A DNA stretch of 64,000 nucleotides from Candidatus Latescibacterota bacterium (GTDB taxonomy: Bacteria > Latescibacterota > UBA2968 > UBA8231). Position 1 is the first letter of the stretch. Each line of letters begins with the position of its first letter. Position numbers and translations under genes: made by a program. Under the pieces are notes generated by a model. It saw only the letters and a list, made by a program, of their open reading frames with translations, made no database searches and had not been told where the DNA came from. The DNA is taken from assembly GCA_965248265.1 (NCBI GenBank), contig CBDFJF010000002.1:64001-128000 (forward strand). The letters are read 5' to 3'. Shown piece by piece: positions 2,477 to 2,776 of this stretch.

Positions 2477-2506
2477 TTGACGCGATTTCAGGCAGGCATG
2501 TATATT
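2477..2506 (+). promoter_or_regulatory. Sigma70-type promoter
   Basis: TTGACG (2477-2482), 18-nt spacer, TATATT (2501-2506). The predicted TSS near 2512 coincides with the 5' strand of a long-range stem. Confidence 0.6.
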
Positions 2507-2513
2507 ACGAGAA

Positions 2514-2757
2514 GCTGGTCGACAAGCGGCCAGCCCCGGGCGATTACGCCAATCGGCTGACTTTCGTCTCAGAAGGCGTCCGCAGGACGCTTTTCGCTGC
2601 GTCGGCCTTACCATTGTGCACGAGCAAGCCTCCTGGTACGCCGACCCGAGGGTCGGTGAGGAGGCATTCTGGCTCGATGCTTGAAAGAAAGGAGGTGGTC
2701 TGTGAGCAGTAGTATACCATTAAGGGGGTCGGCCACCTGACCTGAGCTTCGACCAGC
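2514..2757 (+). ncRNA. Putative structured RNA or 5' leader of unrecognised family
   Basis: Closing stem GCTGGTCG(AC)AAGC 2514-2527 with GCTTCGACCAGC 2746-2757; internal hairpins at 2531-2559, 2573-2593, 2628-2665 and 2693-2738. Confidence 0.55.
2702..2740 (+). CDS. Putative 12-aa micro-ORF/leader peptide MSSSIPLRGSAT
   Basis: GTG start 5 nt after AGGAGGT within an extended SD (AGAAAGGAGGTGGTC, 2686-2700); TGA at 2738-2740. Confidence 0.4.
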   Translation: MSSSIPLRGSAT

Positions 2758-2776
2758 ACCCTGTTATTCTCTGACT

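Follow-up and report, generated by a model that had tools for sequence, protein, structure and literature searches.

A conserved small RNA gene of Latescibacterota with a Shine–Dalgarno sequence across the 16S rRNA tail and a mini reading frame

We analysed a 64,000-nucleotide (nt) stretch of contig CBDFJF010000002.1 from a Candidatus Latescibacterota bacterium (assembly GCA_965248265.1), here called the window, and concentrated on positions 2477–2757 of its + strand, here called the element. The element is a real, strongly conserved, promoter-driven small RNA gene. Its hallmark is a Shine–Dalgarno sequence (SD) that pairs with the 3′ tail of the 16S ribosomal RNA (rRNA) far beyond the usual length, and this SD is followed at once by a reading frame of a dozen codons. 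On balance we lean towards reading the element as the genome's sole copy of a class-wide, single-copy, stand-alone small messenger RNA (mRNA) gene of the same kind as the rre genes of alpha-proteobacteria, from which the 3′ third has been deleted and which would work by the ribosome-dependent mechanism set out below.

The host genome measures 7.3 Mb and has a single 16S gene, on contig 1. We refer to its GTDB family as f1 and to two sister families as f2 and f4. Relatives of the element were collected by BLAST against 60 related genomes and by a pattern scan of one genome per species, which added 32 loci; after removal of duplicates, 34 relatives and the window copy remained. The scan pattern demanded the SD, CACCT and CCRGGTG but made no demand on start codon, stop codon or frame, and the 13 loci found by BLAST were collected with no 14-mer requirement. 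The core alignment, A1, comprises 34 sequences, and R1 denotes a covariance model of the element's core.

Extended Shine–Dalgarno sequence, mini frame and stop-codon helices

The host genome's own 16S gene terminates in ...GGATCACCTCCTTTCT. When the segment AGAAAGGAGGTGGTC (2686–2700) is set against this end, all 15 bases pair, one of them as G–U, which bears out the 15-nt complement that the original prediction had derived from a typical bacterial 16S tail; T2701 adds a second wobble. The longest perfect, wobble-free run in the complement is 12, and no copy deviates from the G of the first wobble. Across 20,629 GGAGG sites on both strands genome-wide, 16 pairs were reached solely here and by the antisense of the 16S gene, one site reached 15 pairs and four reached 14. 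The complement is thus, as had been claimed, far longer than an ordinary SD, and is the longest in the genome apart from the 16S gene's own antisense. The 14-mer GAAAGGAGGTGGTC (2688–2701) is invariant in 34 of 34 aligned relatives, a count that includes pattern-collected loci in which the SD was demanded.

Partial burial of the SD in a stem, another feature of the original prediction, was also found: AGGTGGTC (2693–2700) pairs with GGCCACCT (2731–2738) through eight pairs, one of them T–G. Ensemble folding of 22 relatives gave predicted unpaired probabilities of 0.6–0.7 in the A-rich 5′ part of the SD and of 0.1–0.3 in GGUGGUC, and the window copy is predicted to have the same pattern of openness.

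One base past the complement begins a mini frame that had been overlooked (Table 1). In 35 of 35 copies, that is, the 34 relatives and the window, the first start codon downstream of the SD shares its frame with a stop codon (TGA, TAA or TAG) directly after CACC. The start lies 1, 2 or 6 nt from the SD and the stop 46 to 55 nt from it, in seven combinations, and the resulting frame lengths of 27, 30, 33, 36 or 39 nt (9–13 codons) are every one a multiple of three; with one class taken as the reference, the chance of the six further classes being in frame is about (1/3)^6. Translation would start at GTG or TTG in 30 copies and at ATG in the other 5. An SD-like AAGGGGG (2722–2728) stands 9 nt ahead of the stop in the window.

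The peptide encoded by this frame is far less constant in family f1, with strong differences from one subgroup to another. In two subgroups the internal GGAGG falls into different frames (...AGG AGG TCG... versus ...GGA GGT GCG...) although the overall frame is kept, and their peptides differ where the nucleotides agree. Because the frame is kept while the peptides differ, selection seems to bear less on the peptide than on the presence of a frame of this length and on the RNA motifs. The codons of the window frame are rare: TTA is the rarest leucine codon of the genome (1.4 per thousand) and ATA the rarest isoleucine codon, and the codon adaptiveness of the mini frame falls at the 0.25th percentile of 20,000 random 11-codon windows. 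In place of the non-coding RNA that had been envisaged, the sequence points to a complement that is probably the ribosome-binding site of a conserved mini frame.

The promoter named in the original prediction (TTGACG-N18-TATATT) is present and is the sole sigma-70-like site within 2000–3200, where shuffled sequences predict 0.4; it would place the start of transcription near 2513. At the matching position, 16 of 17 copies of the closest group carry a promoter of the form TTGAC-N17/18-TA(T/C)A(T/A)T.

Table 1 Features of the element and of the adjoining sequence in the window
Feature	Position	Strand	Description and basis
Sigma-70-type promoter	2477–2506	+	TTGACG 2477–2482, 18-nt spacer, TATATT 2501–2506
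Hairpin P1	2514–2521 with 2527–2534	+	5-nt loop; RNAalifold, register in the window read from sequence
Variable G+C-rich hairpin	2573–2593	+	Minimum-energy fold; alignment gap in other genera
Hairpin	2628–2665	+	Inner stem (about 2641–2660) has counterparts in relatives; outer GCCTCC/GGAGGC specific to the window
Extended SD	2686–2701	+	16 consecutive pairs with the genome's own 16S 3′ tail: 14 Watson–Crick, 2 G–U
Mini frame	2702–2740	+	GTG start, 11 further codons, TGA 2738–2740
Anti-SD mimic GGCCACCT	2731–2738	+	End of the mini frame; pairs with the 3′ half of the SD, 2693–2700
Breakpoint	2757–2761		Homology to the canonical gene ends; native upstream of the 525-codon frame begins
525-codon frame	2777–4354	+	ATG 36 nt behind the mini-frame stop; not part of the ancestral element

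In other genera, conservation at the DNA level is restricted to about 2684–2756 (77–91% identity in the BLAST comparison), a segment that holds the SD, the mini frame and a few bases beyond. The gene itself extends further. In the aligned flanks of 13 relatives, a promoter, a 5′ domain, the SD and the frame are followed by a hairpin of the form CCAGGTGG-loop-CCACCTGG, a second hairpin, and a G+C stem that leads into a T-run; in 25 of 29 scored copies, five or more consecutive T lie 134–160 nt past the SD. R1 has one match each in 57 of 63 sampled f1 genomes and one weak match among 87 genomes of other families. The exact 14-mer occurs in 53 of 63 genomes of f1, 30 of 30 of f2, 18 of 19 of f4 and 3 of 39 of the remaining families, and the f2 and f4 genomes that carry it have one copy. 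A spread across two phyla, which the titles of the hits might have indicated (Ca. Latescibacterota 19, Gemmatimonadota-type 9, others 4), was rejected because the mappable hits all belong to one GTDB family.

The version in f2 and f4 is shorter and consists of a promoter, a leader of about 10 nt, the same SD, an ATG, 11 codons, a structured 3′ domain and a terminator. Its frame is present in 28 of 29 fetched copies, with an internal GGAGGTG 10 nt ahead of TAG, and its last seven residues, T-S-G-G-G/D-C-S/R, are nearly invariant in all 28 frame-bearing copies.

According to a crude gene caller, the first gene downstream is convergent at 13 of 34 loci, co-directional at 19 and absent at 2. The downstream Pfam families are unrelated to one another (propeller sensor, response regulators, sigma-54 activators, dehydrogenases, epimerases, glycosidase, permease). 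Because the downstream genes are convergent or unrelated, the element is a stand-alone gene rather than a leader, and an attenuator of a downstream gene is ruled out on the same grounds.

Sequences very close to the window copy were found in marine metatranscriptomes. Contigs of 215–229 nt from three runs of three studies match 2593–2750 with 1–2 differences (98–99% identity), have other G+C-rich letters before 2593, and continue past 2750 with the letters of the canonical hairpin. This continuation means that close relatives possess the full gene and that its sequence is present in RNA libraries. The same three runs yielded no contig over 2200–2590 or 2760–3200, and the DNA run X5 partly covered both; this comparison was not used as evidence.

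The end of the mini frame can pair in more than one way. In A1, the SD-masking helix is paired at 97.6% and nearly invariant, and together with the local hairpin that follows it is paired at 96.6%. Relatives can form an alternative helix, in which the frame end, stop codon included, pairs with the 5′ arm and loop of the next hairpin. This helix joins columns 57–67 of A1 to columns 90–100 and is paired at 94.6%, with 4 of 11 pairs compensatory (24 cells), and slid registers reduce the pairing to 23–49%. Its covariation score of 0.270, against 0.144 in shuffles, was reached by 0 of 500 shuffles, a control that overstates the support because the sequences are related by descent. Minimum-energy folds of 13 relatives contain the alternative helix in nine and the two local hairpins in two, and in f2 and f4 the frame end also pairs with a distant downstream segment. 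A frame end with two partners has the anatomy of a switch.

The 5′ domain is more variable, its length ranging from about 70 to 190 nt among subgroups. Consensus folding with RNAalifold on a MAFFT alignment of 16 copies recovered only three short helices; 5′ hairpins outside these three were compared by eye only, and the homology of the inner stem at about 2641–2660 likewise comes from reading the alignments by eye, not from a formal count. Among the helices, P1 has 7 pairs, 6 of which vary on both sides in some copies. P1 occupies bases that the original prediction had assigned to a closing stem (2514–2527 with 2746–2757), and the two structures compete. The closing stem has no counterpart in relatives, in which its 5′ strand belongs to the covarying P1; its 3′ strand sits where homology to relatives stops. 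The closing stem and the hairpins nested in it do form in the minimum-energy fold, but the five-stem architecture is not a conserved unit. Conservation in relatives, on which the original prediction had staked its stems and SD, extends to the SD, the frame and the covariation of P1 and of the stop-codon helix, and not to the closing stem. The minimum-energy fold of 2513–2760 has −110.3 kcal/mol (z −2.88; 1 of 200 shuffles equally stable) and the opposite strand folds at z −3.53; because both strands score alike, fold energy is weak evidence of structure and is not strand-specific.

The truncated copy in the window

In the window, homology to the canonical gene breaks off just past the mini frame and the native upstream sequence of a 525-codon frame begins (Table 1); 2762–2790 resembles the sequence just upstream of the homologous frame in genome G019. 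The hairpin, the second hairpin and the terminator of the relatives are absent both from the window, by pattern searches, and from the whole genome, by BLAST and R1. The window copy scores 42.8 bits with R1, compared with 68–97 for other copies. The other R1 match in the host genome, at C2:1368045 (21.2 bits, E 0.25), was dismissed as noise.

The 525-codon frame matched no Pfam family, and its ATG at 2777 lacks an SD of its own. In G011, G007 and G019, a homologue shares its contig with the small gene, at a distance of about 3 to 36 kb. The family has several paralogues per f1 genome (5 matches in G000), with open frames typically of 590–700 codons. A deletion that fused the small gene to the 525-codon frame would be the simplest account. 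Every sampled word of 2400–3000 recurs in four runs of one sample, which means that the junction cannot be put down to a mistake in the deposited assembly alone; the fusion was seen in no other genome searched. The 98–99% identity of 2593–2750 to contigs of the full gene indicates that the loss is recent, and says nothing about the ancestral role. The window copy would retain docking, SD masking and the mini frame, and its transcription would have to run into the 525-codon frame.

Relation to known systems and competing explanations

The search of Rfam found no known RNA family in the element. At gathering score, the sole match in the window is a tRNA gene with a long variable arm at 49558–49641 (+; Rfam tRNA, 56.5 bits); 2300–2900 gave just chance-level matches (E 0.32–9.7) far under the cut-offs, and the loci of 13 relatives gave none. 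This agrees with the original prediction, which had recognized no hallmark of a riboswitch, transfer-messenger RNA (tmRNA), signal recognition particle RNA or RNase P RNA; 6S RNA, which it had named as a family that a match might reveal, gave no match at gathering score either. Its description of the RNA as belonging to an undescribed kind has to be withdrawn, because small mRNAs of this sort, rreB of Bradyrhizobiaceae and rreR of Rhodobacterales, are already in print (Hahn et al., RNA Biol 2017, PMC5711450).

In that account, the rreB RNA is 165 nt long, has a promoter and a terminator to itself, and carries a frame of 14 codons that starts with GTG; rreR has 18 codons. The complement of rreB to the 16S tail is 17 nt and perfect, with its five 5′ nucleotides alone predicted to be open. 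The rreB RNA is found in the ribosome fraction and co-sediments with 30S subunits. It is weakly translated, removal of the start codon stabilizes it, and the extended SD reduced translation. Overproduction had no growth effect, and ribosomes far outnumber the RNA. The peptides of both genes are reported to be conserved within their clades (PMC5711450).

The element's family resembles rreB and rreR in its predicted small, stand-alone transcript, for which an RpoD-type promoter and a terminator were read here from the sequences of relatives, and in an SD that is extended on both sides across the whole free 16S tail. It also shares the very short frame with mostly non-ATG (GTG) starts (9–13 codons in all 35 copies), the predicted arrangement of a single-stranded 5′ SD part with the remainder in a conserved hairpin, and conservation within a clade with gene neighbours that vary between clades. 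It differs in belonging to another phylum, in having 9–13 codons rather than 14 or 18, and in a complement that stops one base before the start codon. Further differences are a second SD-like motif 9–10 nt ahead of the stop, the placement of the stop codon within an anti-SD mimic able to form a covarying alternative helix, peptides that are poorly conserved within f1, and longer RNAs (about 230–340 nt, predicted) with a variable 5′ domain. We would take the relation to be one of kind, not of descent, and set the element beside the rre genes by description. The literature searched reported no rre-type genes outside alpha-proteobacteria, and one preprint on noncoding sequence space was also silent on this group.

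In leader-peptide attenuators of the trp and thr type, ribosome-dependent translation of a tiny frame picks between RNA pairings, and a terminator follows. The complete gene similarly combines a tiny frame and alternative pairings with a later terminator, but it has no regulated downstream gene, and its terminator, about 90 nt past the switch, takes no part in the alternative pairings. With tmRNA it would share the character of a housekeeping-like, single-copy small RNA that has a short internal frame and acts on ribosomes; unlike tmRNA, it has no tRNA-like domain and no match to the Rfam tmRNA family, and its frame has its own SD and start codon.

From this anatomy, the covariation and the rreB precedent we infer the following mechanism. 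A 30S subunit would dock on the open, A-rich 5′ half of the SD, invade the helix that masks the 3′ half, and start at GTG or TTG (ATG in one subgroup and in the sister families). The ribosome would then read the short rare-codon frame slowly, and to reach the stop codon it would need to open the stop-codon helix, upon which the downstream RNA would refold. The working product would be the encounter of RNA and ribosome, through docking and translation-gated refolding or decay, and not the peptide. The original prediction had proposed that the RNA captures, delivers or sequesters 30S subunits; a role at the 30S subunit is plausible from the likeness to rreB and rreR, whereas simple sequestration is doubtful, because rreB overproduction had no effect on growth and ribosomes far outnumber the RNA (PMC5711450).

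A narrower version, which we put forward only tentatively, is a translation-gated RNA switch that reports free 30S subunits. Here the full-tail SD would capture a subunit, and one slow round of translation through the rare codons would bring the ribosome to the stop, where the internal SD-like motif would lie 6 nt from the last sense codon. Its arrival would prise apart the covarying stop-codon helix; the RNA would flip between SD-open and SD-masked states and so set the fate of its 3′ domain (decay or activity). If this were true, rre-type genes would be a convergent, widespread class of ribosome-status sensors, with the window copy as a natural mutant deprived of the output half.

Small mRNAs with a whole-tail SD have so far been described, in the sources available to us, in alpha-proteobacteria alone. 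That a class so distant has the same design, near-universal and single-copy, suggests a general answer to some ribosome-linked task. New with respect to the published rre cases, as far as the available text describes them, are the covariation-backed alternative helix that contains the stop codon, an internal SD-like motif whose distance from the stop is fixed, and frames that stay open while the peptide drifts. These additions make rre function a testable mechanism, and the window copy provides a natural truncation in which the input half (promoter, SD and frame) is kept and the output half is lost.

Several points count against a ribosome-gated small mRNA of the rre kind. We infer the RNA ends, 30S binding and translation alike, and the RNA-library contigs do not prove transcription, as DNA can occur in such libraries. 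The masking helix and the local hairpin are nearly invariant and so give no covariation signal; the SD, CACCT and CCRGGTG were fixed by selection in the pattern-collected subset of 32 loci; and the shuffle control for the switch helix is lenient for the reason given above. The complement here has 14 Watson–Crick pairs and 2 wobbles, compared with the 16–17 perfect pairs that define rre genes, and the rre genes themselves have no known function according to the available account (PMC5711450). The fixed C-terminal residues in f2 and f4 would also fit a functional peptide, and the window copy, without switch partner and terminator, may be a decaying remnant.

The last two points lead to the two foremost alternatives. 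If the gene were an ordinary one for a micropeptide of 9–13 residues, with the peptide as its product and the long SD just securing expression, one would expect what is seen in the frame kept in 35 of 35 copies, in the nearly invariant last seven residues of the 28 frame-bearing f2 and f4 copies, and in the reported conservation of the rreB and rreR peptides within clades (PMC5711450). We nevertheless consider this unlikely, because the f1 peptides differ strongly and two subgroups read GGAGG in different frames, the conserved letters coincide with the SD-like motif and the helix strands, the codons are among the genome's rarest, and extended SDs lowered translation in rreB (PMC5711450). The other alternative concerns the host genome alone, where the element might now be the 5′ leader and upstream frame of the 525-codon gene, or a remnant being lost. 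The lack of a terminator or hairpin past 2757, the low R1 score, the ATG at 2777 that follows the stop by 36 nt without its own SD, and the junction words in four runs of one sample all speak for it; yet promoter, SD, frame and masking helix are intact, the loss is recent, and the fusion occurs in no other genome searched, so that this too we hold to be improbable.

More doubtful still is a sponge or decoy for the bulk capture of 30S subunits. The longest 16S complement of the genome and the presence of rreB mainly in the ribosome fraction would suit such a role, whereas the gene is single-copy, and in rreB overproduction had no growth effect and ribosomes far outnumber the RNA (PMC5711450). 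It would also leave the conserved frame, the stop position and the switch helix unexplained. The site preference of the protein CsrA includes GGA motifs, and the element has two GGA-containing motifs about 30 nt apart in a genome with a CsrA gene, so a small RNA that titrates CsrA was considered as well. It is very improbable, disfavoured by a phyletic mismatch: among the 81 genomes of the class with a completeness of 90% or more, CsrA was found in just 21 (14 of 39 in f1, 5 of 25 in f2 and 0 of 13 in f4), whereas the 14-mer is present in 101 of 114 f1–f4 genomes, and the two do not co-occur as a titrating RNA would demand. The invariant block, moreover, matches the 16S tail base for base, and the kept frame would go unexplained. 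Among these possibilities, the small mRNA whose encounter with the ribosome is its product is the reading we prefer.

Neighbouring genes and further sites

Upstream of the small gene, a divergent flavin amine-oxidase-type gene, a glutamyl-tRNA reductase gene or a MetA-pathway-type outer-membrane gene recurs. Tetrapyrrole-type neighbours were seen in several genera (loci L014, L015, L037, L040, L042, L047, L050 and L058), and in the window 3–1148 (−) and 1396–2358 (+) hold a glutamyl-tRNA reductase-like frame, recognized by eye, and a MetA-pathway-type outer-membrane protein. These recurring neighbours are probably inherited synteny.

A second exact 14-mer of the host genome (G000), with 15 pairs to the 16S tail, lies at G000:C1:1471238–1471252 (L078), and likewise at G011:C29:75555 (L090). 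The site at C1:1471238 was rejected as another such gene: features of the small gene are missing, and the stretch around it, conserved in G011, reads as a coding region of the other strand. At L091 (G026:C1:1447300–1448000), the same 14-mer stands ahead of an ATG and a 91-codon frame, whose product we take to resemble a Phd/YefM-type antitoxin. L088 (G077:C10:4650–5350), from a more distant family of the phylum, has a promoter-like site, the 14-mer, a TTG and a 15-codon cysteine-rich frame, and may be a further variant of the small gene. L094 (G044:C1:4613600–4614300) is a second, partial gene copy with the SD, ATG and three more codons; one and the same direct repeat of about 36 nt borders these 47 nt left and right, a sign that a rearrangement or a mobile element may have affected the small gene there.

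Paralogues of the 525-codon frame lie on contig 2 of G000 at about 988612, 3269526 and 3554229. Downstream of this frame, the window continues with a gene for an LTXXQ-motif protein at 4426–5229 (+) and an N6/N4 DNA methylase gene at 5250–6125 (−; Pfam E 3.6e-34).

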